Shown piece by piece: positions 1 through 11,516 of a stretch of DNA of 11,516 bases. Origin of the DNA: a virus (taxonomy: Duplodnaviria; Heunggongvirae; Uroviricota; Caudoviricetes); IMG/VR virus record IMGVR_UViG_2778261454_000012; one strand, 5' to 3'. The notes below the pieces were generated by a model that was not told the origin of the DNA, ran no database searches, and saw nothing but the letters and a program-made list of their open reading frames with translations. How positions within the stretch are numbered: position 1 is the stretch's first letter; every line of letters starts with the position of its first letter. A program made the position numbers and the translations under genes.

Positions 1-443
1 TGAAACGTAAAACACTGCCTCTGCTGGCGCTGGTTGCCACCACTCTGTTTCTCATCGCATGCGATGACAGAAGTGATGACCTGAAGGCCATCAGTAAATT
101 TAAGGACCTCACCCCACCGCGTTTCAGTGATGTGGTCAGCCACCAGGATGATGTCAGCGAAGAATGGTCACAGGTTGACTACTTATCCGGTCCCACCTTG
201 CAGGTTTTACGTACCCGCCAGTCGCCCGATGGCTGCGAGGATGGCAGTTACTACTACCTCGTGGATATGCAGGAAAAAACCGTCCAGCCACTGATGAATG
301 CGCTGTGTATTGCCGATAACATCAAACTGGAATACCAGGAGGTGACGGACCCGTATACCAAAGAAAAATACTTTGAGTACGCCCATGACGGCAAACTGAT
401 GGGGCGACTGCTGATACCCTCAAACCCTGACAATCAGGAATAA
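1..443 (+). CDS. yafY: Inner-membrane lipoprotein, YafY/YfjS family (5' partial: window starts at the 2nd base of the ATG)
   Basis: Frame from position 3 reads KRKTLPLLALVATTLFLIAC-DD and continues into track ORF 132..443. Lipobox LIAC with Asp at +2 is the inner-membrane retention signal (established for YafY/YfjS). Position upstream of the ykfB-ykfF-yafX block matches CP4-6 gene order from memory. Confidence 0.6.
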   Translation, partial: KRKTLPLLALVATTLFLIACDDRSDDLKAISKFKDLTPPRFSDVVSHQDDVSEEWSQVDYLSGPTLQVLRTRQSPDGCEDGSYYYLVDMQEKTVQPLMNALCIADNIKLEYQEVTDPYTKEKYFEYAHDGKLMGRLLIPSNPDNQE

Positions 444-465
444 AACAACGATAAAGGAGACAAGA

Positions 466-933
466 ATGACAATACTTTCACTAAGTCGGTTTATGCTGGC
501 GGGTGTACTGCTCGCGAGCTTTAATGCCTCTGCTATCCCGGGGTTCTGGCAGCAGGGTTACGGTCAGGGCAATACGGAATACAGCGTGACCGAAGCCAGC
601 GGAAAGACGTTTACCATCAACTGCACAGGGAACCCGGACCAGAATGGTTTCTATCAGCATTCAGTCTTTCTTACCCTTGCCGATGACAAGATGGTCAGTT
701 CGCACGATGACGACACTACTATCACCGTAGTGATGGATCACCAGCAGTACATTATTCCGTCCAGCCTGGGCTGGCGTAACGGCGATAACGCCTGGTTTGA
801 CTTCATCAGCAATATCTCTGAGGCCGGGCAGTTCGACGTCTACGTCAATGACCACAAAGCAGGGACCTTCACTGCGGACCGGAAGAACGCTGAGAAAGTT
901 CTGTCCACTCTCGGAGACTGCAGCAACGACTGA
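466..933 (+). CDS. Secreted/periplasmic protein with N-terminal signal peptide (YkfB-like by position)
   Basis: 155-aa ORF. AAGGAG at 454-459, 6 nt before the ATG. N-terminus [23 protein letters not shown] is hydrophobic and signal-peptide-like. Followed by hairpin terminator at 960-994. Confidence 0.6.
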
Positions 934-959
934 TAGTAGCATCTTCCCCAGCAAATCCA

Positions 960-994
960 CCCCGACAGCTAGCAGGCTGCCGGGGTTTTCTTTT
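960..994 (+). terminator. Rho-independent terminator-like hairpin
   Basis: ccccgacagc / gctgccgggg stem (9 of 10 bp) with 6-nt loop, followed by ttttctttt. Confidence 0.5.
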
Positions 995-1009
995 ATCAGG
1001 AGCCCGAAA

Positions 1010-1249
1010 ATGACCCAATCCGTGTTGCTGCCACCGGGGCCTTTCACCCGGAGACAAGCGCAAGCGGTCACTACCACGTACAGCAATATCACACTCGAAG
1101 ACGACCAGGGCAGTCACTTCCGTCTGGTGGTTCGTGATACTGAAGGCCGGATGGTCTGGCGGGCATGGAACTTTGAGCCGGATGCCGGTGAAGGTCTTAA
1201 CCGCTATATCCGCACCTCAGGCATCCGTACAGACACGGCCACCCGCTGA
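1010..1249 (+). CDS. ykfF: DUF905-family small protein (YkfF-like), 79 aa
   Basis: Internal ATG at 1010 preceded by AGGAG (998-1002). Product [20 protein letters not shown]... is 79 aa; the longer track ORF 797..1249 overlaps the upstream gene and is rejected. Gene order matches CP4-6. Confidence 0.6.
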
Positions 1250-1302
1250 TCGCGAAGCATTTACCCGCATTCACCTCCCCGAACACACTTTATATCCCCA
1301 TA

Positions 1303-1328
1303 CGCCAGCCATCGCCGCTGGCGTTTTT
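1303..1328 (+). terminator. Rho-independent terminator-like hairpin
   Basis: cgccagc / gctggcg 7-bp stem, 7-nt loop, then ttttt. Confidence 0.5.
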
Positions 1329-1346
1329 ATTGACGGAGACATACCC

Positions 1347-1805
1347 ATGATAACACAGACGCAGCACGACCTCGCACCCGCTAACCAACCCGAATTTGAA
1401 CTGACCGTCACGCCGGTCCCCGATGAACAGCGTATCGATTTCTGGCCACAGTACTTTGGCGCTATCCCGCAGTGGCTACTCCTGGAGCCGCATATCTTCG
1501 CCTGGATGGACCGCTTCTGTGAGGGCTACAGCGGTGGTATCTGGTCGTTCTACACCCTCAGCAATGGCGGCGCATTTATGTCCCCCGAGCCTGACAACGA
1601 TGAGACATGGCGTCTGTTTAACTGCCTGAACGGTAACGATGCCCAAATGAGTGCAGAAGCAGCAGGTATTGCTGTCTGCCTGATTGCGTATAGCCACCAT
1701 GCCTGCCGTACAGAATGTGACGCGATGACCGCACACTATTACCGCCTGCGGGAGTATGCCATGCAACATCCAGAGGCTCACGCCATTCTGCGTATTATCG
1801 ACTGA
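1347..1805 (+). CDS. yafX: Antirestriction protein, ArdB/KlcA-like (YafX/YfjX/YeeS-type), 152 aa
   Basis: ATG at 1347 with GGAGA 7 nt upstream. Product MITQTQHDLAPANQPEFELTV...EAHAILRIID matches the conserved CP4-type antirestriction protein from memory. The track ORF 1134..1805 N-terminal extension is rejected. Confidence 0.7.
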   Translation: MITQTQHDLAPANQPEFELTVTPVPDEQRIDFWPQYFGAIPQWLLLEPHIFAWMDRFCEGYSGGIWSFYTLSNGGAFMSPEPDNDETWRLFNCLNGNDAQMSAEAAGIAVCLIAYSHHACRTECDAMTAHYYRLREYAMQHPEAHAILRIID

Positions 1806-1820
1806 CCGAAGGAGCAACAG

Positions 1821-2297
1821 ATGAAACAGCTTTCCTTTTTACCCGGCGAGATGACGCCACAGGACCGGCGTCTCATTCAGCGGGCGCTCAGGGCTCTGGA
1901 CCGCCACCTGCATGAGCCCGGCGTAGCCTTCACCTCTACCCACGCCGTACGTGAATGGCTGCGACTGCATATGGCCGCGCTTGAGCGGGAAGAGTTCCGG
2001 GTGTTGTATCTGGACAACCAGAATCAGTTGATTGCCCATGAAACGCTCTTCACCGGCACGATTAACCGCACCGAGGTGCATCCCCGGGAGGTGGTCAAAC
2101 GTGCTCTGCACTTCAACGCGGCGGCGGTGATACTCGCGCATAACCATCCTTCCGGCGAGACGACACCTAGCCAGGCCGACAAAACCCTCACGCAGCGACT
2201 GGTTCAGGTGCTTCAGCTGGTGGATATCCGTGTCCCTGACCATCTGATTGTCGGTGGCAGGCAAATCTATTCGTTCGCAGAACACGGTCTGCTTTGA
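1821..2297 (+). CDS. ykfG: RadC-like JAB-domain protein (YkfG/YfjY/YeeS family), 158 aa
   Basis: AAGGAG RBS before ATG 1821. Contains the JAMM-like motif region ...AAAVILAHNHPSGETTPSQAD... (HNHPSG is the RadC/JAB signature). Confidence 0.75.
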   Translation: MKQLSFLPGEMTPQDRRLIQRALRALDRHLHEPGVAFTSTHAVREWLRLHMAALEREEFRVLYLDNQNQLIAHETLFTGTINRTEVHPREVVKRALHFNAAAVILAHNHPSGETTPSQADKTLTQRLVQVLQLVDIRVPDHLIVGGRQIYSFAEHGLL

Positions 2298-2305
2298 GGT
2301 ATTAC

Positions 2306-2527
2306 ATGAAAATTATCAGTAAACGCAGGGCAATGACGATATACCGCCAGCATCCTGAGTCCCGAATCTTTCGCTACTGCACCGGCAAATACCAGTGGCA
2401 CGGTAGCGTCTGTCATTACACCGGCAGGGACGTTCCGGATATCGCCGGAGTCCTCGCGGTATACGCCGAACGCCGCCAGGACCGCAATGGGCCCTATACC
2501 TGCCTGATGAGCATCACCCTGAACTGA
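2306..2527 (+). CDS. ykfH: DUF987-family small protein (YkfH/YeeT/YfjZ-neighbour type), 73 aa
   Basis: Internal ATG at 2306 gives MKIISKRRAMTIYRQHPESRIFRYCTGKYQWHG..., 73 aa, with GAGG upstream. Conserved partner immediately upstream of the CbeA-type antitoxin. Confidence 0.6.
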   Translation: MKIISKRRAMTIYRQHPESRIFRYCTGKYQWHGSVCHYTGRDVPDIAGVLAVYAERRQDRNGPYTCLMSITLN

Positions 2528-2545
2528 CAATAGTGGAGAACTGTA

Positions 2546-3225
<680 letters not shown>

Positions 3226-3290
3226 ACATTGCGTACAACCTTCCCGATTTACATTTCTGAACTTCCTCCCTTGTTTACCTATTGCGTAAT

Positions 3291-3326
3291 GCGCCTGCTA
3301 CTACCCGGCAGGCGCGTTATCTTTTT
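3291..3326 (+). terminator. Rho-independent terminator downstream of the toxin gene
   Basis: gcgcctgc / gcaggcgc perfect 8-bp stem, 9-nt loop, followed by gttatcttttt. Confidence 0.6.
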
Positions 3327-3596
3327 ACGGACAAACAATCATGCAACCAGAAGTTGAAGTATTAACCGATCATAATGAGCTAATTTGTTCGAGCTTTATT
3401 GAACACATTGCCAACACATTAAATTTAGGAGTGGTGTACAACTAAACCTGCAGCCAAGGATGTATAGTGAGCGAAGCCCTATCAGGCCTTTTTGGTCAGT
3501 AGATAAGATTGATCTTCGTTGATAGAATTTACTTACACCAGCTGTTACATTAAGATAATTTTTTGGTGGGAGAATGATAAGATCTTACGTAACAAT

Positions 3597-3652
3597 TTGA
3601 TTTTAATGGTGCCGATAATAGGAGTCGAACCTACGACCTTCGCATTACGAAT
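3597..3652 (-). repeat. att-type direct repeat: partial copy of the thrW 3' part (46 nt of tRNA from the anticodon loop to CCA, plus 10 bp of flank)
   Basis: 3597-3652 matches 10063-10118 with one mismatch (3604 t vs 10070 a). Identity stops exactly at attacgaat (anticodon loop). Sequence diverges on both sides. Confidence 0.85.
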
Positions 3653-3843
3653 CTGTAGCACCAATCATAACTATCTGTTTTAGCAAGCATTAACCGCATT
3701 CACTAAGCTATAGTTGATGGCACAAACAGAAAGTTGATGCATGATGTTGTCATGTATATGTCACAAATACGGCACAACGATCTTCAAACATGTAGCCACA
3801 CATCCACAGAAGAGCACAAAGCCTTGCAATCCAGTGCAACGCT

Positions 3844-4071
3844 TTGTGTACCATAGTTTTTCCTTATCAACTACCGCAAGTATCGATCGATGGAGGCTTG
3901 GATGTTAAATTTCATGACTTTGATCACTTGGTGCATCACGAAACTATCGAAGTGCAACTCGCTCATGCCAACGGCGGATCTGTGCGTGGGATTTACAACC
4001 ATGCTCAGTATCTCGATAAGCGCAGAGAAATGATGCAGTGGTGGGCGGATTGGATTGATGAGAAGGCGTGA
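3844..4071 (+). pseudogene. C-terminal fragment of a P4-family tyrosine integrase (remnant)
   Basis: Translation ...KFHDFDHLVHHETIEVQLAHANGGSVRGIYNHAQYLDKRREMMQWWADWIDEKA carries the P4-type C-terminal signature (E-x-x-LAH...VRG-x-YN-x-x-Y...RR-x-MMQ-x-WAD). The frame is open only from 3796 (TAG at 3793-3795); track start is a TTG. The N-terminal ~300 aa are absent. Confidence 0.6.
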
Positions 4072-4165
4072 TGCTTTCCATCTTTCCATTCGGATTCCTC
4101 CTACCAGGCTTGCCGGTATGGTGATATAGTTAATGTTTTACTTTTTATAGTTTATAGATAAACAG

Positions 4166-5215
4166 ATGAAAAATAATAGCATCCAGATAGCAAGGGCGAT
4201 TGCCGCGTTACTTGTAGTGTTTCACCATTTGTTTATACCAATATTCCATAGAGATAATGCCTACACAGATTATCTGAAGCATTTTAATTTTAGCTTCATC
4301 GGTGATTATGCCGTTTATGTTTTTTTCTGTATAAGCGGTTACGTAATGATGATGTCAACGACAAAAAAGCATAAAGGATCGATATCTTTCCTGAGTGACA
4401 GAATATTAAGAATCTATCCTTCGTATATTATATGGACAGTTATCGCCATTGCTTTAGTATACATTGGCAGAGTAATTGGCTATGAAATTGTTAGATTTAA
4501 AAATATTCCTCATAATGTTGTGGATATGATTCAGGTATTGCTTTTGTTGCCTTCTATTTCTGACCACAGCAACTACGCCATGACTTTGCCAACAGCATGG
4601 TCACTTGTGTATGAAATGTATTACTACGTTGTATTTGCTCTATTACTTAAATTTATTAGTGTTCGTAATATCCCGTATGCTCTCATGGGTATATTTGCTT
4701 TATCTTCGTTTGTTATTAACTCAAACTTCCCTCAGGGTAGGTACGGTTGGGTGAATTTATGGTACATTATTGGGGACTATGCGAATATATGTTTTGCATC
4801 GGGGGCGCTGATATATAACATAACAAACAACATCAATAATCCAATAAAATACAAACACCTCCCAATTGCGATTGTATTATTATTTGCGGTATTGCTATCT
4901 TCCAATAACGGCTCACTATACCAAATAAATATAATCATGATGTCAATTACAACGTTCATTTTATTTCTTTTTAGTGACTTTGGGAGTGGTGTGCTTTCTA
5001 GATGTTTTTCATATATCGGTGATGCATCGTATAGTATATACATAACCCACATGCTATTTAATTTAGCGGCTTGGAATTCTTGGACTCAGTATAGCAGTTT
5101 GGTTGGTGCCTTTGGAATTTCTATAACATCAATAGTATTTGGGATTATAGCTTACGAATTCCTTGAAAAACCATTAACGATGGCGTCCAGAACTTTAAAG
5201 CAAAGAGTTGCTTAA
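4166..5215 (+). CDS. Acyltransferase-3 family integral membrane protein, O-antigen/LPS O-acetyltransferase-like (Oac/OafA-type)
   Basis: 349 aa, many hydrophobic segments. N-terminal IARAIAALLVVFHH and RILRIYPSYIIW motifs are typical of the AT3 family. Strongly AT-rich. Convergent with the tailspike-like gene, next to the att repeat, as in Sf6-type conversion modules. Confidence 0.7.
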   Translation: MKNNSIQIARAIAALLVVFHHLFIPIFHRDNAYTDYLKHFNFSFIGDYAVYVFFCISGYVMMMSTTKKHKGSISFLSDRILRIYPSYIIWTVIAIALVYIGRVIGYEIVRFKNIPHNVVDMIQVLLLLPSISDHSNYAMTLPTAWSLVYEMYYYVVFALLLKFISVRNIPYALMGIFALSSFVINSNFPQGRYGWVNLWYIIGDYANICFASGALIYNITNNINNPIKYKHLPIAIVLLFAVLLSSNNGSLYQINIIMMSITTFILFLFSDFGSGVLSRCFSYIGDASYSIYITHMLFNLAAWNSWTQYSSLVGAFGISITSIVFGIIAYEFLEKPLTMASRTLKQRVA

Positions 5216-5218
5216 GAT

Positions 5219-5240
5219 AAAGGGCGCAAACGCGCCCTTT
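5219..5240. terminator. Bidirectional rho-independent terminator between the convergent genes
   Basis: aaagggcgc / gcgcccttt perfect 9-bp stem with aaac loop, A-run on the left and tttattattt on the right. Confidence 0.75.
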
Positions 5241-5245
5241 ATTAT

Positions 5246-7210
5246 TTAGGGGTTTCTGACCTGCCATACTTTGTCATAGCCGTGCGTATACCCACATCGT
5301 GTAACGGTTAGGTGTACTATTGCCATTGATAGAGTAGGCGTATCAAACCGGAAGCGAATATACGTCCCTCCGTTTACTACCTGCTTTACAACGTTAATTC
5401 CTGTTAGATTTTTGTCTCCTGGATCATAATTTGTCCATATATTGCCTGCTGAGGATATATCTGATTGCGTTGTACCAGAAACAGTTGCCAGAATCCTGCC
5501 ACCGGAACCTGATGATGTAACCCCGGATTTTCCAACAGGAAAAATGATTGCTTCCACGCATAAAAAATTCCCGCCAGGCGTCTTGGTTTCCTCCCCCACT
5601 GCGGTAAGGAAAACATCAAGTGATGCACCATATGGAACGATAACCGTCCCCTTGTCTGTAGATACATTGTTAAAAACAGCATTACTGTTGTAGTTTACTG
5701 CCGAAAGAACAGCCCCAATTCTGTTATTAGATATGCTATTTGAGGATTCAGTTCCGTACCACCTTCCATTTATTTTTACGCTTTGCGCCTTGGTAGAGTT
5801 CATTTTAGATGCAGTTACCGAGCTAACAAATCTAAATGTATCCTTGATCTCAAAACCACGGCATTGATTAATGTTGCTGTCGTTGCTATTGACAAAGAAC
5901 TGTACCGCCCTATCGGTCTTTATCATCCCTGTTTGGAATACTGCCATTCCTAATACGTTTGTTGCATTGTCAGGAGTTTTAACCACGGATGTTACTGTTG
6001 AGTCTCGTGTAGTCTGAATCCAACAATCAACAGCATCAAAATATATAGCAGATCGTTCAGTTTCAGCAAATGGTGAGAAATCAAATAACGTATCACCCCT
6101 AACCCCTTCAATACCTAATCCAGTTATTTTTAAATCTCTCCCCCTGTAAAATTTGTGTGGGGTAATACACATATCTGCGGCAATATTATTTGCCGCAACG
6201 TACATCAATACCTCATCATCTGAGAATGCGGGAATTTTTGATACCCTATCATAGGTTGCTCCCCAACAAAAACCGACTCCGCATCTTAATGCCCACGCAG
6301 CTGATAGATTTATAGATGTTGCAACTAGGGTCATGCCAAAGTTGCATGAATACATGAATACTCTGTCGCTTTCAGATACGAAACATGACAATGCCAGACC
6401 AACATTGTATCTCATGAGGTTTACATTGTTTATTTTATATTGCTGCCCACCTCCGGAAGGTTGCCCTAACTCTGAGTTACCTGAAATTACTAGAGGGCAG
6501 CCAACAGTTTCCTCATCGGCATTAACAAAGCCAATGTTTTCAACCAATAATTCATGACACCATGTTGCACAGAAGAAACCGCCGTCTCCGGATGTGTATA
6601 TTACTGAGTGGAGCGGGTTTGTGCCGAAAATATTTAACGAGTACCCATCCCATCTTTTCGCAGTAATATCAATTGAGGTATCGCCAATATACATAGGGCT
6701 ATCAATAAAGATTGGCATGTATGTATTATAGGCCGCAATCAATGCTGCGCTGTCGTTTGTTACCCCAGTCAGGTCAGGCCTAGGCATATCCGTGTCGTGA
6801 TTAATATCATGAACATCAACTTTTGGCGCATCCATCCACGCGCCAAACATACGAGGTGTTACGTACCCCTTCCCTTGCAGATCTCGTTTCCAGCGTTTAC
6901 CACCCGCAGTGACAATGACCATGCCGTTATCATCTGCAGAAGTCGAATCTGTGAAATCGGCCACAAACAGACCACCACCAGTATCACCTGATACTGTCGG
7001 CTTCATGCCTGTAGTGTGGAAGTCGACGAAAATCTTTTGCTGATCTCGCTCAGGCTCAATTGTCCTTAACATTGCTATATCAGGGCATGTCCCGATGTAT
7101 TTAAGACCGTCTTCATTGCCGTCCCATAAAGGAGGTGATGCGGATGTTTTTCTTTTATCGCTACTTGTAACATCAGGAATAGCGATTACTTCTATTGTTG
7201 TTTTCTTCAA
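5246..7210 (-). CDS. Tailspike-like right-handed beta-helix protein (putative polysaccharide depolymerase/receptor-binding protein), 654 aa; start uncertain
   Basis: Long clean ORF. Around residues 115-150, GYVTPRMFGA...LTGVTNDSAALIAAYN resembles the pectate-lyase-fold entry motif (FGA...G-x-TDD-x-AA). Many Asn/Gly-rich repeats downstream. Position and orientation match a P22/Sf6 tailspike. The only start at the ORF head is TTG at 7208-7210, with no Shine-Dalgarno and a stop just upstream. Confidence 0.5.
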   Translation of the reverse strand: MKKTTIEVIAIPDVTSSDKRKTSASPPLWDGNEDGLKYIGTCPDIAMLRTIEPERDQQKIFVDFHTTGMKPTVSGDTGGGLFVADFTDSTSADDNGMVIVTAGGKRWKRDLQGKGYVTPRMFGAWMDAPKVDVHDINHDTDMPRPDLTGVTNDSAALIAAYNTYMPIFIDSPMYIGDTSIDITAKRWDGYSLNIFGTNPLHSVIYTSGDGGFFCATWCHELLVENIGFVNADEETVGCPLVISGNSELGQPSGGGQQYKINNVNLMRYNVGLALSCFVSESDRVFMYSCNFGMTLVATSINLSAAWALRCGVGFCWGATYDRVSKIPAFSDDEVLMYVAANNIAADMCITPHKFYRGRDLKITGLGIEGVRGDTLFDFSPFAETERSAIYFDAVDCWIQTTRDSTVTSVVKTPDNATNVLGMAVFQTGMIKTDRAVQFFVNSNDSNINQCRGFEIKDTFRFVSSVTASKMNSTKAQSVKINGRWYGTESSNSISNNRIGAVLSAVNYNSNAVFNNVSTDKGTVIVPYGASLDVFLTAVGEETKTPGGNFLCVEAIIFPVGKSGVTSSGSGGRILATVSGTTQSDISSAGNIWTNYDPGDKNLTGINVVKQVVNGGTYIRFRFDTPTLSMAIVHLTVTRCGYTHGYDKVWQVRNP

Positions 7211-7290
7211 TTATTTCGACTGGCTGAAAATCTGGCTTGCTCCAAAACTTTACCTTATCGAATATGCAGCATCATTGGTTAAGTAATTTC

Positions 7291-7316
7291 AGGCCGCATA
7301 GTCGGCCTTCATTTTT
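7291..7316 (+). terminator. Terminator-like hairpin (plus orientation) in the junction region
   Basis: aggccg / cggcct 6-bp stem, 6-nt loop catagt, then tcattttt. Confidence 0.4.
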
Positions 7317-7345
7317 GGCATAAACAACAGAATAAACACTGCACT

Positions 7346-7373
7346 GTGTATTCATTCCAACGAGTGAATACAC
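7346..7373. promoter_or_regulatory. Perfect 9-bp inverted repeat (gtgtattca N10 tgaatacac), candidate operator or RNA hairpin
   Basis: Read directly: 7346-7354 is the reverse complement of 7365-7373. Lies about 100 bp upstream of the ATG at 7475. Confidence 0.35.
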
Positions 7374-7474
7374 GGAGCAATGTCGCTCGTAACTAAACAG
7401 GAGCCGACTTGTTCTGATTATTGGAAATCTTCTTTGCCCTCCAGTGTGAGGTCAATTTTTTTGACGGAGGATAT

Positions 7475-8443
7475 ATGAGTGAAGTAACAGATTTAGTTGT
7501 TATTGAAAAAGCAAATGCAATGACTGTATTTCAGTCTGCCGACCAGATTGAAGAAATCCTTCAAAAGGTTGAACGTGAAGTTATGTCCTTTGTGCCTGAT
7601 ATCACAACGGCAAAGGGCAGAAAGGAGATCGCTTCTCTGGCGTATAAAGTTGCGCAGACGAAAACATATCTCGATGGCCTTGGCAAAGACCTTGTTGCTG
7701 AACTGAAGGAAATTCCAAAGCTAATTGATGCCAACCGCAAGACAGTACGCGATCGCCTTGATGAACTGAAAGCCAAGGCGCGCCAGCCTCTTACTGATTA
7801 TGAGGAAGAACAGGCGCGGATTAAAGCCGAAGAAGAAGCTAAGGCAGCAGCTGAAGCTCTCGCAAAGCAAATTGAGTCTGACCATGAAATAGCGATTTTG
7901 ATGGATCGCGAATTTGACCGCCAAAGAGAAGAGGCAAGACTCAAAGCGGAGCAGGAAAAGCGAGAGCATGAAGAACGCTTAAAAAGAGAAGCTGAAGAGA
8001 AAGCCAGAGCAGAAGCCGAAGCAAAGGCAAAAGCCGAAATTGAAGCAGCAGCAAGGCGAGAAGCAGAAGCTAAGGCAGCAGCGGAACGTGCAGAGCGTGA
8101 ACGCATTGAAGCTGAGCAACGAGCACAGCGCGAAGCAAAAGAGGCAGCAGAACGAGCTGAAAGAGAAAAGCAGGCGGCAATTGAAGCAGAACGCCGAAAA
8201 GCACAGGAGGAGGCTGAACGAATCCGGCGCGAGGCTGAAGCAAAAGAGCAAGCCAGAATAGCAGAAGAAAAAAGAATCAAGGACGAAGAAGAGCGTAGAG
8301 CAAAGGATAAAGCTCACCGGAAAGAAGTAAATAACAAAATACTTGCTGACCTTATCAAGGTTGGCGCATCAGAAGATGTTGCTAAAAATATCATAACAGC
8401 CATCGTAAAAGGCGAAGTATTCGCAACAAAAATAACCTACTAA
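7475..8443 (+). CDS. Phage early-region protein with a long ER/K-rich charged alpha-helical (coiled-coil or single-alpha-helix) segment, 322 aa
   Basis: ATG at 7475 with GGAGG (7466-7470). N-terminal domain MSEVTDLVVIEK...; central ~150 aa is almost only E/A/K/R/Q in heptad-like repeats (AEEKARAEAEAKAKAEIEAAARREAEAKAAAERAERER...); short C-terminal domain. The upstream 18 codons of track ORF 7421 begin with TTG and are rejected. Confidence 0.65.
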   Translation: MSEVTDLVVIEKANAMTVFQSADQIEEILQKVEREVMSFVPDITTAKGRKEIASLAYKVAQTKTYLDGLGKDLVAELKEIPKLIDANRKTVRDRLDELKAKARQPLTDYEEEQARIKAEEEAKAAAEALAKQIESDHEIAILMDREFDRQREEARLKAEQEKREHEERLKREAEEKARAEAEAKAKAEIEAAARREAEAKAAAERAERERIEAEQRAQREAKEAAERAEREKQAAIEAERRKAQEEAERIRREAEAKEQARIAEEKRIKDEEERRAKDKAHRKEVNNKILADLIKVGASEDVAKNIITAIVKGEVFATKITY

Positions 8444-8467
8444 TAAAACCAACATAAGGAACCACCC

Positions 8468-8599
8468 ATGATTCACGCAATCGCGGGAGGCGCTCGCATG
8501 GGTGCCTTCCAACTAAATGAATCTTTACTTGAACGAATCACCCGTAAATTACGTGACGGATGGAAAAGAGTTGAGGTCTTATTATGCGCAATGAAATAG
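8468..8599 (+). CDS. Small hypothetical early protein, 43 aa
   Basis: ATG at 8468 with AAGGA 8 nt upstream. MIHAIAGGARMGAFQLNESLLERITRKLRDGWKRVEVLLCAMK. Overlaps the next ORF. Confidence 0.35.
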   Translation: MIHAIAGGARMGAFQLNESLLERITRKLRDGWKRVEVLLCAMK

Positions 8600-8736
8600 C
8601 CATCAATCACCAGATGCTTCGTGCAGCACAGAACAAAGCAGTAATAGCCAGATTTATTGGTGATTCAAAAATGTGGATTGAAGCAAATAAAGCGATGAAA
8701 TCAGCTATCAACCTTCCGTGGTATCGCAGGAAATGA
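8584..8736 (+). CDS. Small hypothetical early protein, 50 aa
   Basis: ATG at 8584 with GAGG upstream. MRNEIAINHQMLRAAQNKAVIARFIGDSKMWIEANKAMKSAINLPWYRRK. Stop overlaps the next start (ATGA). Confidence 0.4.
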   Translation: MRNEIAINHQMLRAAQNKAVIARFIGDSKMWIEANKAMKSAINLPWYRRK

Positions 8737-8891
8737 GTTTTACAGATAACTGGTCAGACGAAGAATTCATTCGTCAGATGAAAGAATTAATCGGTAACGA
8801 AGGAGATATTCATGTCACTTGCAACCACAGTGAAGGAGAGCAAGTTACAGAGACGCATGTACACGCAGAAAGCTCTCTGGTATCGCCATAA
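8733..8891 (+). CDS. Small hypothetical early protein, 52 aa, acidic
   Basis: ATGA overlap with the preceding ORF (translational coupling). MSFTDNWSDEEFIRQMKELIGNEGDIHVTCNHSEGEQ.... Overlaps the 8812 ORF in another frame, so one of the two may be spurious. Confidence 0.3.
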   Translation: MSFTDNWSDEEFIRQMKELIGNEGDIHVTCNHSEGEQVTETHVHAESSLVSP

Positions 8892-8982
8892 TGGCGACCG
8901 CGAAGGAATGCGGGTATGCCTTAATTTGTCCCGAGTCGAAGTATTAAATCAGCGTTATTTCCTTGGGCCGTGTCCATTCTGA
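8812..8982 (+). CDS. Small hypothetical early protein, 56 aa
   Basis: ATG at 8812 with AGGAG 6 nt upstream. MSLATTVKESKLQRRMYTQKALWYRHNGDREGMRVCLNLSRVEVLNQRYFLGPCPF. Ends 8 nt before the next gene. Confidence 0.45.
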   Translation: MSLATTVKESKLQRRMYTQKALWYRHNGDREGMRVCLNLSRVEVLNQRYFLGPCPF

Positions 8983-8990
8983 GGTGAATT

Positions 8991-9698
8991 ATGGATTTGA
9001 ACAAATTCGATGAGCCATTCAGCCCTGAAGATATCGAATGGCGAATACAGCAAAGCGGTAAAACACGCGATGGCAAGGTGTGGGCTATGGTGCTGGCTTA
9101 TGTCACGAACAGGGCAATCATGAAACGCCTGGACGATGTTTGCGGCAAAGCAGGATGGCGCAATGAATACCGCGATATTCCCAACAACGGCGGCGTTGAA
9201 TGCGGCATATCAATCAGGATTGATTCCGAATGGGTAACCAAATGGGATGCTGCTGAAAACACGCAGGTAGAAGCCGTCAAAGGTGGTCGTTCCGGTGCAA
9301 TGAAGCGCGCTGCCGTTCAGTGGGGAATCGGTCGGTATCTGTATAACATTGAGGAAGGTTTCGCACAAACATCTCTCGATAAAAAGCAGGGATGGCACAG
9401 GGCAAAACTCAAGGATGGAACAGGATTTTACTGGCTCCCTCCATCGCTGCCGGGATGGGCAATCCCAGCATCAGATAACAAACCATCACCAGAAAATACC
9501 AACCAGAAATCTCCATCGGTTGACTGCGAGCAAATCCTGAAAGACTTCAGCGATTATGCGTCAACAGAAACTGACAAGAAAAAACTCATCGAGCGTTATC
9601 AGCGTGACTGGCAATTAATGGCTGGCAACGAGGAGGCGCAGGCTAAATGCGTTCAGGTAATGAACATCAGAGTTAACGAACTAAAACAGGCGGCATAA
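8991..9698 (+). CDS. Single-strand annealing protein, Rad52/Rad22 (Sak-like) family, 235 aa
   Basis: GAGGTG RBS. Contains ...GVECGISIRIDSEW...KGGRSGAMKRAAVQWGIGRYLYN..., the Rad52/22-type GIGRYLY signature. Followed directly (TAAATG) by an ssb start. Confidence 0.7.
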   Translation: MDLNKFDEPFSPEDIEWRIQQSGKTRDGKVWAMVLAYVTNRAIMKRLDDVCGKAGWRNEYRDIPNNGGVECGISIRIDSEWVTKWDAAENTQVEAVKGGRSGAMKRAAVQWGIGRYLYNIEEGFAQTSLDKKQGWHRAKLKDGTGFYWLPPSLPGWAIPASDNKPSPENTNQKSPSVDCEQILKDFSDYASTETDKKKLIERYQRDWQLMAGNEEAQAKCVQVMNIRVNELKQAA

Positions 9699-10058
9699 AT
9701 GGCAAGCAGAGGCGTAAATAAGGTGATTATCCTTGGTCGGGTAGGACAAGACCCGGAAGTTCGATACTCACCATCAGGAACAGCGTTCGCTAAGGGAGCG
9801 TTAAAGCGGGCAGGCATTAGCAACTTCCGCTTCCATGATCTGAGGCATACCTGGGCAAGCTGGCTGGTTCAGTCCGGTGTCTCTCTTCTTGCACTTAAAG
9901 AGATGGGAGGATGGGAAACTCTCGAAATGGTTCAAAGATACGCCCACCTTTCAGCCGGGCATCTCACCGAGCACGCAAGCAAAATCGATGCGATTATAAG
10001 TCGCAATGGCACAAATACGGCACAAGAGGAGAACGTGGTTTACTTAAATGCTAGGTAA
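9699..10058 (+). pseudogene. In-frame chimera: SSB N-terminus (about 29 aa) fused to C-terminal catalytic segment of a tyrosine integrase (about 90 aa)
   Basis: [29 protein letters not shown] is the canonical SSB N-terminus. From about codon 30 the product reads ...[48 protein letters not shown]..., the box II region (H-x-x-R ... Y) of phage integrases. Ends 14 bp before the thrW 3' end, convergent with it. Confidence 0.75.
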
Positions 10059-10072
10059 CTTATTGATTTAAA

Positions 10073-10148
10073 TGGTGCCGATAATAGGAGTCGAACCTAC
10101 GACCTTCGCATTACGAATGCGCTGCTCTACCAACTGAGCTATATCGGC
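10073..10148 (-). tRNA. thrW: tRNA-Thr (anticodon CGU)
   Basis: Reverse complement reads GCCGATATAGCTCAGTTGGTAGAGCAGCGCATTCGTAATGCGAAGGTCGTAGGTTCGACTCCTATTATCGGCACCA, 76 nt. It has the D-arm GCTCAGTTGGTAGAGC, anticodon loop with CGT, T-arm GGTTCGACTCC and encoded CCA. Confidence 0.95.
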
Positions 10149-10262
10149 CCTGAAAGGACATGTTCACGAACGTGAATCACGGTGGACAAGGTTAAAACTA
10201 ACCGGGCGATGCGTCAATGGCCTTGTGAATCAAATGGCTACTTTTGCATCACCCGGTTTTAT

Positions 10263-11516
10263 TTACGCACGAATGGTGTAATCACCAATGCCGATCCACT
10301 TGTAAGTGGTCAGTGCTTCCAGCCCCATTGGGCCACGCGCGTGGAGTTTTTGTGTGCTTACCGCCACTTCCGCACCCAGACCAAACTGGCCGCCGTCGGT
10401 AAAACGCGTAGAGGCGTTAACGTAAACAGCGGACGAATCCACTTCGTTAACAAAACGCTGGGCGTTGCGCATATCGCGGGTCAGGATCGCATCGGAGTGT
10501 TGTGTGCCGTGTTCACGAATATGGGCGATGGCATCGTCAAGATCGCTGACGATTTTGACGTTCAAATCTAATGACAGAAACTCATCGTCATACTCTTCGG
10601 CTTTAACAGCAACCACCTTCGCAGGGCCTGCCTGCAACTGCGCCAGTGCAGCTGCATCTGCGTGTAATGTCACGCCGCTTTCCGCCATTTGTTTGCTTAA
10701 TGCGGGCAGGAAGCTATCGGCGATGTTTTTATTCACCAGCAACGTTTCAACCGTATTACATGTGCTCGGACGCTGAGTTTTCGCGTTGACGATCACTTTT
10801 AATGCTTCAGCGATCTCTACACTTTCATCAACGTAAATATGGCATACGCCTATACCACCTGTGATCACCGGGATTGTCGACTGTTCACGGCACAGTTTAT
10901 GCAAACCAGCGCCACCACGCGGGATCAGCATGTCGATGTATTTATCCATACGCAGCATTTCACTGACCAGCGCACGGTCAGGATTATCAATCGCCTGCAC
11001 GGCACCCGCCGGTAAGCCGCAGGATTTCAGGGCGTCCTGAATCACCGCCACCGTTGCAGCGTTAGTGCGACACGTTTCTTTGCCACCGCGCAGGATCACC
11101 GCATTACCGGTTTTCAGGCACAGCGAAGCGACATCAACCGTCACGTTCGGGCGCGCTTCATAAATCACGCCAATAACCCCCAGCGGTACGCGACGACGCT
11201 CAAGACGCAGGCCGCTGTCCAGTACGCCGCCATCGATTACCTGCCCCACCGGATCGGCGAGGTTGCACACCTGACGTACATCGTCGGCAATGCCTTTCAG
11301 CCGTGCGGGCGTCAGTGCCAGACGGTCAAGCATCGCTTCGCTAAGGCCATTGGCTCGCGCGTCAGCAACATCCTGGGCGTTAGCGTTGAGGATGATTTCG
11401 CTTTGTGCTTCCAGTTCATCGGCGATTTTTTCCAGCACGCGATTTTTTTCGCGGCTGGAGAGTTGCGCTAATTTATACGAGGCTTGCTTCGCGGCAATGC
11501 CCATTTGTTCCAGCAT
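10263..11516 (-). CDS. proA: Gamma-glutamyl phosphate reductase (proline biosynthesis), 417 aa, complete
   Basis: Translation [38 protein letters not shown]...[12 protein letters not shown] matches E. coli ProA in full. Start codon is the last three bases of the window. Confidence 0.97.

Follow-up and report, generated by a model that had tools for sequence, protein, structure and literature searches.

A predicted O-antigen acyltransferase gene as probable lysogenic-conversion cargo of a P22/Sf6-like prophage remnant at thrW

Why does the G+C content fall so steeply beside a phage attachment site, and what does the AT-rich DNA encode? The question is raised by a window of 11,516 nt, the whole stretch of DNA analysed here, in which a first-pass annotation had taken positions 3653 to about 7400 for one separately acquired moron. 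What the window contains is a 6.4-kb mosaic, left over from a P22/Sf6-like prophage that had integrated in thrW, and we consider it probable (roughly three chances in four) that the G+C trough represents a lysogenic-conversion cargo gene of a P22/Sf6-like temperate podovirus, now surviving in a deletion remnant at this site. The moron-like unit is the stretch 4072–5245 (~1.2 kb); the 3.7-kb extent proposed originally is three times that of the real unit.

The compositional break at the acyltransferase region is real. The acyltransferase gene (4166–5215) has a G+C content of 0.347, with 0.346, 0.340 and 0.354 at the three codon positions, against 0.544 for the CP4-6 genes (1–3225) and 0.543 for proA (0.648, 0.414 and 0.567), so the sharp step reported between this gene (34.7%; 35% at third positions) and the flanking E. 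coli genes (54%) holds. The gene lies 12.8 binomial standard deviations under the host genes. It also departs from the rest of the prophage (0.446; z=−6.5), with G+C and GC3 about 11 points lower, a deviant composition of the kind expected of a moron. The hand counts on 60-nt lines were reproducible: a recount gave 14–27 G+C per line within the gene, including a 22 and a 14, and 37 in several lines of proA. Over 3653–7400 the G+C content is 0.404, compared with 0.507 elsewhere in the window. In an entropy-based segmentation, positions 3206 and 7607 scored highest as change points (0.546, 0.402 and 0.481 in the successive segments). A computed profile without a significant step had been named beforehand as grounds for giving up the idea; a significant step is present, as none of 200 shuffles matched the score of either change point. 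Nested within this segment is a trough at 4124–5221 (0.339), for which segmentation and permutation gave p=0.006 for the split at 4123 and p=0.06 for that at 5221.

The borders of the low-G+C DNA differ from those first drawn. Position 3653 is indeed the first base past an att repeat, an exact 48-bp direct repeat (3605–3652 and 10071–10118), but the drop starts ~400 nt earlier, at the end of ykfI, and the intergenic DNA at 3226–3585, common to K-12, is already at 0.397. The block is not uniform, as part of an integrase fossil (3944–4071) is at 0.516. The fading described within the tailspike gene is seen as a partial rise at 6750–7050 (0.45–0.49), which gives way to a renewed dip (0.38–0.41) over a deletion junction; the tailspike fragment as a whole (5246–7114) is at 0.431 and the early-left genes (7341–9793) at 0.463. 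In a control of 29 kb of ordinary E. coli flanking DNA, 4% of 1050-nt windows had a G+C content of 0.36 or less (minimum 0.322), so that low G+C alone is not unique to the acyltransferase gene.

The remnant is composed of several parts. At its left end, the att copy (3605–3652, minus strand) is formed by 46 nt from the 3′ end of thrW and two further nucleotides; imperfect similarity reaches out to 3586, and the attP core of phage HK75 could be aligned. The adjoining attP arm of a thrW-integrating lambdoid module (3653–3860) is 93% identical to HK75, has a G+C content of 0.404 and pairs with the HK75-type integrase end at 9792–10118. It is followed on the plus strand by 211 nt (3861–4071) of an argW-type integrase gene (intS/Sf6 int type), a fossil comprising the last ~70 codons; positions 3863–3943 are ~90% identical to K-12-type intS and have a disrupted reading frame, and 3944–4071 match mip270_04 intS, inside a 99.7%-identical block. 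Beyond the cargo and the tailspike fragment, a filler (7115–7125) marks the large deletion junction between tailspike and early-left operon, at which some 30 kb appears to have been lost, carrying the late, lysis, replication and immunity genes. The early-left DNA at the junction (within 7115–7400) is 98% identical to phage N7. The early-left operon remnant (7126–9793, plus strand), 97–99% identical to phages N7 and Sf6 and to a thrW prophage at another locus (L004), contains genes for a coiled-coil protein (7475–8443), cIII, kil and an Erf/Rad52-type recombinase (8991–9698), and the first 32 codons of ssb. A 3.8-kb internal deletion created an in-frame ssb′::int′ fusion ORF (9699–10058, plus strand), which has SSB and Phage_integrase matches; of a thrW-specific (HK75/P22-type) integrase it keeps ~89 codons, those for the C-terminal part. 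The right att copy (10071–10118, minus strand) lies in thrW, next to proA; this tRNA-Thr(CGU) gene (10073–10148) is intact, and an Rfam scan of the window found thrW only.

The head-binding part of the tailspike and the late genes that would mark a P22-like phage are both deleted from the window, which makes the element a remnant and not a phage. The PF09008 domain and gp16-, gp20-, gp7- and gp10-type genes are present in the mip270_04 copy and gone from the window; a gp16 fragment is still present in a variant (L020).

The cargo proper (4072–5245) consists of a 5′ spacer, the acyltransferase gene and a bidirectional terminator. The AT-rich spacer (4072–4165, plus strand; G+C 0.36) is unique to this cargo and contains a candidate extended −10 box, TGATATAGT, at 4122–4130. 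A consensus −35 element or consensus sigma-70 promoter was not found upstream of the gene, and in a promoter scan sites were no commoner than in shuffled sequence, with none directly 5′ of the gene. Since the upstream integrase gene is dead in the remnant, the acyltransferase gene may be silent. The intrinsic terminator (5216–5243), between the convergent acyltransferase and tailspike genes, has a G+C-rich stem of 12 bp, in and next to which lie A-rich and U-rich bases, and none of 200 shuffles folds as well (z=−4.1). On the upstream side, intS homology in ~2800 genomes ends at the intS stop codon (4066–4071), so that the slot 3′ of it is one of variable cargo. The complete mip270_04 genome, whose prophage is complete across the 10 kb examined, has argW, intS, acyltransferase and convergent tailspike in that order. 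The gene is absent from the same slot in close relatives, as expected of a moron, and occurs in only 1 of 5426 complete E. coli genomes, whereas the neighbouring prophage DNA is found at 96–99% identity in hundreds of phages and genomes. A separate origin is thus upheld for the acyltransferase gene; it does not extend to 3653–7400, where attP arm, integrase fossil, cargo, tailspike, deletion junction and early-left DNA were found in place of one moron.

The tailspike fragment (5246–7114, minus strand) comprises the C-terminal 622 codons, with the receptor-binding and enzymatic part, and was assigned by identity to mip270_04 and by PHROG 33504 (E=8e-157). The block 3944–7114 is 99.75% identical to mip270_04, which has a full 742-aa tailspike; the 120-codon P22-type head-binding domain is deleted from the window, and Head_binding (PF09008) matched at residues 1–113 of the intact mip270_04 protein only. 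An ORF at 5246–7210 with a TTG start was rejected as a junction artefact. The tailspike is the phage's own essential structural gene and not a moron. A sequence search of solved structures matched its first ~95 residues only, to CBA120 TSP2-type N-terminal domains, and the best tblastn match among phages was 44% identical. NCBIfam gave no match for either the acyltransferase or the tailspike.

The acyltransferase gene (4166–5215, plus strand) encodes an AT3-only membrane O-acyltransferase of 349 residues, as judged from PF01757, PHROG 3333, sequence motifs and a structure model. The PF01757 match (E=1e-30; 107 bits against a cut-off of 31) is full-length, aligning residues 4–330 with positions 2–325 of the 326 in the profile, and PHROG 3333, ‘O-acetyltransferase’, matched with E=1e-50. 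The motifs sought were R/K-X10-H in TMH1, FFxISG in TMH2 and RxxR near TMH3, which contain residues essential in OafA and Oac (PMC7448272). They are present as R10-X10-H21, F53-F-x-I-S-G58 (F53-F54-C-I-S57-G58) and R79-x-x-R82; all three are invariant in an alignment of 19 sequences, and H21 is nearly invariant (90% or more) in one of 33. Proteins of the AT3-only subclass, ~330–400 aa in length, have no fused periplasmic SGNH domain, and the protein conforms to this in its length, its single Pfam domain (4–330) and its lack of an SGNH domain. The AlphaFold2 model is all-helical (pLDDT 90.1, pTM 0.89) and was compared with the multi-helix transmembrane acyltransferase fold (TmAT), which HGSNAT is reported to share: human HGSNAT takes the first four places among the PDB matches, with Foldseek probabilities of 0.99–1.00 but E-values of 0.07–0.15 and TM scores of 0.47–0.50, and no bacterial AT3 structure was among the PDB matches. 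With every catalytic motif in place, the AT3-only acyltransferase is most likely an O-antigen O-acetyltransferase, predicted to serve as a lysogenic-conversion gene.

No relative above 28% identity was found in deposited phages by tblastn, a single-protein scan of IMG/VR viral contigs and GTDB representative genomes found none, and a profile of the seven closest proteins matched no viral contig and, among genomes, no more than six distant loci. The search for a donor lineage that had been suggested yielded no nameable donor, the best relatives outside E. coli being only 38–44% identical. The homologues in Dryocola sp. BD626 and Siccibacter turicensis (38–40%) are the last gene of a wzx/wzy O-antigen cluster, just before gnd; that of Lonepinella (34%) lies in an ABC-transporter polysaccharide cluster, and the Paramixta homologue is an orphan with no polysaccharide cluster around it. 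The homologues measured (Dryocola, Paramixta and Lonepinella) have a G+C content of 0.28–0.34 in hosts of 0.39–0.57. Prophages at three att sites (thrW, att-lambda and argW) carry intact copies of the gene that differ by one base change at most. The sole complete genome with the gene carries O32-family wzx and wzy; a literature search on O-acetylation of E. coli O32 returned no paper mentioning E. coli O32.

Could the whole of 3653–7400 nevertheless be a single block from one foreign donor, inserted into the prophage? The coarse segmentation does give one low-G+C segment (3207–7607, 0.402), and 3944–7114 is one contiguous match to another prophage. However, at least five pieces differ in relatives and G+C content (HK75-type att arm; intS fossil, 0.516; cargo, 0.347; tailspike, 0.431; junction and early-left DNA), the low G+C begins before the att repeat in DNA common to K-12, and divergence is unequal in a further locus (L016), where an acyltransferase allele of 73% amino-acid identity adjoins a tailspike receptor part of 93% identity in an unrelated phage backbone. 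A single donor block is accordingly very improbable. The last comparison, together with the saturated synonymous sites of the acyltransferase, also led us to reject the acyltransferase and tailspike as one block of equal age. The low G+C might instead reflect no more than the make-up of a very hydrophobic membrane protein (13% Ile, 7% Phe, 7% Tyr and 6% Asn, with a GC2 of 0.34), yet third positions, largely free of protein constraint, are at 0.354 against 0.54–0.71 in the host genes of the window (0.48–0.50 in the neighbouring erf and ssb′::int′), and the non-coding upstream spacer is also at 0.36. Recent acquisition is also shown, without recourse to composition, by the presence of the gene in 1 of 5426 genomes, and we give this explanation very little credence. 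A chimeric assembly of thrW and argW prophage DNA is suggested by the 99.75% match of 3944–7114 to the argW prophage of a strain whose thrW flanks are 100% (1–3652) and 99.7% (right) identical to the window. It was rejected, as the sequence recurs at 100% identity in independent assemblies (GCA_002518125.1, whole window; Logan SRR3993847, 3624–10100), a variant is present in SRR33282647, and the same ssb′::int′ fusion lies beside thrW-proA in a JGI metagenome and in GCA_022538985.1, whose contigs begin right of the cassette.

The preferred reading, a lysogenic-conversion cargo gene, suggests the following mechanism. Judging from the motifs and from relatives that have been studied, the AT3-only integral-membrane protein would pass the acetyl group of cytoplasmic acetyl-CoA through a membrane pore, and a sugar in the O-antigen repeat would receive the group on the periplasmic side. 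The O-antigen concerned is probably the one that is bound and cleaved by the adjacent tailspike, and its acetylation would change the serotype and block re-infection by phages of that tailspike specificity. The position of the gene in the oac slot of Sf6, and of its relatives at the end of low-G+C O-antigen clusters, makes O-acetylation of the O-antigen recognised by the tailspike, with lysogenic conversion and superinfection exclusion, the most likely function. There is precedent in Sf6 Oac and BTP1 OafB, which by O-acetylation block the tailspike of the phage that encodes them (PMC9558356). A different substrate (capsule or K-antigen, enterobacterial common antigen, peptidoglycan or a small molecule) or a need for some other partner, the tailspike link being only positional, appears unlikely. 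In its favour, the substrates acylated by AT3-only proteins are many (PMC9558356), the tailspike is similar in its N-terminal part to portions of Klebsiella phage depolymerases, and the Paramixta homologue lies apart from polysaccharide genes; against this stand the two Enterobacteriaceae homologues in wzx/wzy clusters, the third in an ABC-type cluster and the oac slot itself. As to history, the gene was probably drawn from the low-G+C pool of O-antigen genes, its relatives being equally AT-rich wherever they are located. From the breakpoints, a swap of integration modules would have brought it into a thrW-integrating phage, leaving the dead integrase 3′ end, and two later deletions would have removed all lytic functions while sparing gene and terminator. 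More tentatively, it is possible that the cassette of integrase fossil, acyltransferase and terminator is a domesticated host gene, kept by selection while the three prophages (thrW, att-lambda and argW) decay or differ, and perhaps spreading between att sites via conserved phage flanks; it may represent an Oac-like subfamily, so far uncharacterised, that would give a minority of E. coli an O-acetyl serotype variant (possibly of O32) together with phage resistance.

O-acetylation of the O-antigen changes serotype, vaccine epitopes and phage susceptibility. A rare, uncharacterised AT3 subfamily in E. coli that is physically paired with a tailspike is a candidate for a new pair of receptor and receptor-masking functions. 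The locus may also serve as a teaching example: the G+C trough pinpoints ~1.2 kb of cargo and not the surrounding mosaic, the integrase fossil records a swap of integration modules, and stepwise prophage decay spares the conversion gene.

Among known systems, a close parallel is Sf6 Oac (gene 15, O-antigen acetylase), likewise AT3-only (~340 aa), with the TMH1 Arg/His, FFxISG and RxxR in common and with the same order of integrase, acetylase and convergent tailspike, a terminator lying between the last two. Sf6 Oac is a prophage-borne lysogenic-conversion gene, the role predicted for the gene in the window. The two are not orthologues, as the alignment shows 32% identity over the first 93 residues only; orthology to the characterised OacB, OacC or OacD was likewise not supported by tblastn of deposited phage records (none above 28%), which covers such copies as those records contain; Sf6 oac is far less extreme in composition (0.418 against 0.347), and the window copy is in a thrW remnant, not an argW phage. 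BTP1 OafB (family II GtrC) and P22 gtrABC likewise modify the O-antigen and are carried beside att and tailspike by P22-like prophages, and their modifications protect against the phage's own tailspike (PMC9558356). OafB, however, is a fusion of AT3 and SGNH that has an 11th helix as well as a periplasmic domain, where the window protein has the AT3 domain only, and GtrABC glucosylates and does not acetylate. The uncharacterised acyltransferases encoded by Dryocola sp. BD626 and Siccibacter turicensis are the closest chromosomal relatives and members of the same subfamily (38–40% identity over the full length, same length), and the Dryocola gene (0.335) lies in a cluster of similar G+C content (0.325); unlike the phage cargo, both genes are fixed in the chromosome, where they close an O-antigen cluster on the side of gnd. 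The class to which the cargo is likened is that of the lambdoid-phage morons in the sense of Hendrix and Juhala: extra genes of deviant composition, with their own terminator, at a place where related phages have other DNA or none. The terminator of the cargo is strong; for a promoter of its own, the extended −10 candidate at 4122 is the only sign. The gene is thus a familiar kind of phage cargo and not a new system, and it leaves the current view of phage biology unchanged.

The acyltransferase gene (4166-5215, plus strand) is a foreign, moron-like cargo, and to this extent the reading of the first-pass annotation, which took 3653 to about 7400 as one low-G+C moron from a different donor, is borne out; the proposed extent is not. 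The compositional break is real, and the hand counts on which it was based were reproduced in kind. In a sliding profile and per-segment counts, G+C is 0.347 in the acyltransferase ORF, against 0.544 in the CP4-6 genes (1-3225) and 0.543 in proA, with 0.431 in the tailspike fragment and 0.463 in the early-left genes. Each of the three codon positions of the acyltransferase has a G+C of about 0.35, with a GC3 of 0.354 compared to 0.54-0.71 in the host genes of the window; hydrophobic residues are therefore not the sole cause of the trough. Segmentation with permutation tests places the chief change points at 3206 and 7607, with the trough (4123 to 5221, G+C 0.339) nested within. The step had been located right after the att repeat; its actual left edge lies approximately 400 nt ahead of the repeat, because the intergenic stretch from ykfI to the former thrW position (3226-3585), which is common to K-12, is already AT-rich (0.397). 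G+C spans 0.35 to 0.52 within 3653-7400, and a single donor block does not hold, as the insert consists of pieces with different relatives (HK75, intS/Sf6 and N7).

The window matches contig NODD01000031.1 (E. coli assembly GCA_002518125.1) at 100% identity, and an independent read set (SRR3993847) has the identical sequence over 3624-10100. Positions 1-3652 comprise the end of the CP4-6 island, from yafY to the yafW/ykfI toxin-antitoxin pair, and the 3' 46 nt of thrW; identity over this stretch is 99.7% with K-12 and 100% with mip270_04, a complete E. coli genome. Positions 10052-11516 contain thrW and proA. The 6.4-kb insert is bracketed by an exact 48-bp direct repeat (3605-3652 = 10071-10118), and a search of complete E. 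coli genomes returned none with more than half of the window. The P22-like remnant sits between thrW and the CP4-6 island, whose end is the type IV pair yafW/ykfI (2546-3225); two mobile elements therefore lie in tandem at one tRNA gene.

Taken piece by piece, the insert is a P22/Sf6-like prophage stripped of the genes for late functions, lysis, replication and immunity. The attP arm (3653-3860) is 93% identical to phage HK75 and fits the HK75-type integrase C-terminus and att core at 9792-10118. It is followed by the dead 3' end of an argW-specific integrase of the intS/Sf6 type (3861-4071), and by the cargo (4072-5245), in which the 349-codon acyltransferase gene follows a 94-nt AT-rich spacer and is closed by a bidirectional terminator with a 12-bp stem. 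The tailspike fragment (5246-7114, minus strand) comprises the C-terminal 622 codons, the 120-codon P22-type head-binding domain being absent; the block 3944-7114 is 99.75% identical to mip270_04, in which the tailspike gene is intact (742 aa). Beyond the deletion-junction filler (7115-7125) lies early-left-operon DNA (7126-9793), which carries genes for a coiled-coil protein, cIII, kil and erf as well as the beginning of ssb, and shares 97-99% identity with phages N7 and Sf6 and with the thrW prophage of L004. Purine bias between the strands is extreme in the coiled-coil gene (7475-8443), with an AT skew of up to 0.75 and a GC skew of 0.26; its product, which features a long Glu/Ala/Lys/Arg-rich run, belongs to PHROG 1376 and is named 'TolA-like' in some records.

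A second deletion, of 3.8 kb, produced an in-frame ssb'::int' fusion (9699-10058), in which the first 32 codons of ssb are joined to the last ~89 codons of the thrW-type integrase. At the junction (9792/9793), 3787 bp are absent relative to the thrW prophage of L004, and gene calls in at least five independent assemblies include this identical 119-aa product. At the other junction, a variant contig (SRR33282647) retains a fragment of P22 gp16. This contig is identical to the window on either side of 7114-7126, and both breakpoints agree to the base; 1012 bp (3491-4502 of the contig), made up of the gp16 3' fragment and ral-side early DNA, replace the 12 nt of the window (CATTGCCGTCCC).

The acyltransferase gene is found in one complete genome, mip270_04, in identical DNA. 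There it lies within an Sf6-like prophage, apparently complete over the 10 kb inspected, in the order argW, intS, acyltransferase and convergent tailspike. In approximately 2800 E. coli genomes, homology to intS ends at the intS stop codon, which makes the slot behind it a variable cargo site; in the CPS-53 prophage of K-12 this slot is occupied by the gtrABS genes. The integrase fossil beside the HK75-type att arm argues for a swap of integration modules from argW to thrW; the sequences indicate that the thrW-type module took the place of the argW-type one by illegitimate recombination, and that the cargo itself probably did not move.

The left junction (from 3807) recurs at a third chromosomal site, inside a decayed prophage of lambdoid type that occupies att-lambda, beside ybhB-bioA. 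In this copy the tailspike is shortened to 173 codons and the acyltransferase differs by 1 base. Positions 9641-11591 of contig L006, and likewise contigs L007-L010, correspond to 3807-5756 of the window, with the att-arm tail, the intS fossil and the acyltransferase cassette. Ahead of the copy lie the P arm of lambda and a stem-loop resembling the lambda tI/sib terminator. The acyltransferase is intact in all three contexts (thrW, argW and att-lambda), which, at such small divergence, would fit selection for retention of the gene.

The nearest genome-placeable relatives outside E. coli (38-40% identity), in Dryocola sp. BD626 and Siccibacter turicensis, are the final gene of a wzx/wzy O-antigen cluster, directly ahead of gnd. 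A relative from Lonepinella (34% identity) belongs to a polysaccharide cluster of the ABC type. AT-richness extends to the homologues of Dryocola, Paramixta and Lonepinella (G+C 0.28-0.34, against 0.39-0.57 in their hosts) and to the Dryocola O-unit genes overall (0.325). These values argue that the low G+C of the acyltransferase is the mark of the O-antigen gene pool, and not of a nameable donor species.

A phage with a different backbone, a large tape-measure protein and a different tailspike N-terminal adaptor (Tail_spike_N) carries, at 8541-11896 of its contig (L016), an acyltransferase allele 73% identical to that of the window, beside a tailspike receptor part that is 93% identical. Between this phage and the window, dN/dS of the receptor part is about 0.05 and the synonymous sites of the acyltransferase are saturated. 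Judged from these alignments, this acyltransferase type and this receptor-binding type form a recurrent pairing of genes of different age and history. In mip270_04, the only complete genome with the acyltransferase, wzx and wzy (within 2752000-2776000) bear O32-family annotations, which may hint at the O-antigen target of the tailspike and acetylase pair and are the sole substrate lead.

The protein has a full-length match to Pfam Acyl_transf_3 (E=1e-30) and matches PHROG 3333 'O-acetyltransferase' (E=1e-50); a domain search of the protein found no SGNH domain. The motifs R10-X10-H21, FFxISG (53-58) and R79xxR82 are present, and all are kept among the homologues; they include residues essential by mutagenesis in OafA and Oac (PMC7448272). 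The AlphaFold2 model is confident (pLDDT 90), and its best matches among solved structures are to the transmembrane acetyltransferase HGSNAT, with weak E-values. If it acts like Sf6 Oac and BTP1 OafB (PMC9558356), the protein would pass the acetyl group of cytoplasmic acetyl-CoA through its AT3 pore to a sugar of the O-antigen, altering the epitope; the cognate tailspike would then be blocked sterically and the lysogen rendered resistant to re-infection. The gene is probably a rare new addition to a well-known class, the prophage-borne O-antigen-modifying acyltransferases that adjoin a tailspike, and in the mip270_04 prophage the gene order is that of Sf6 (int, oac, tailspike).
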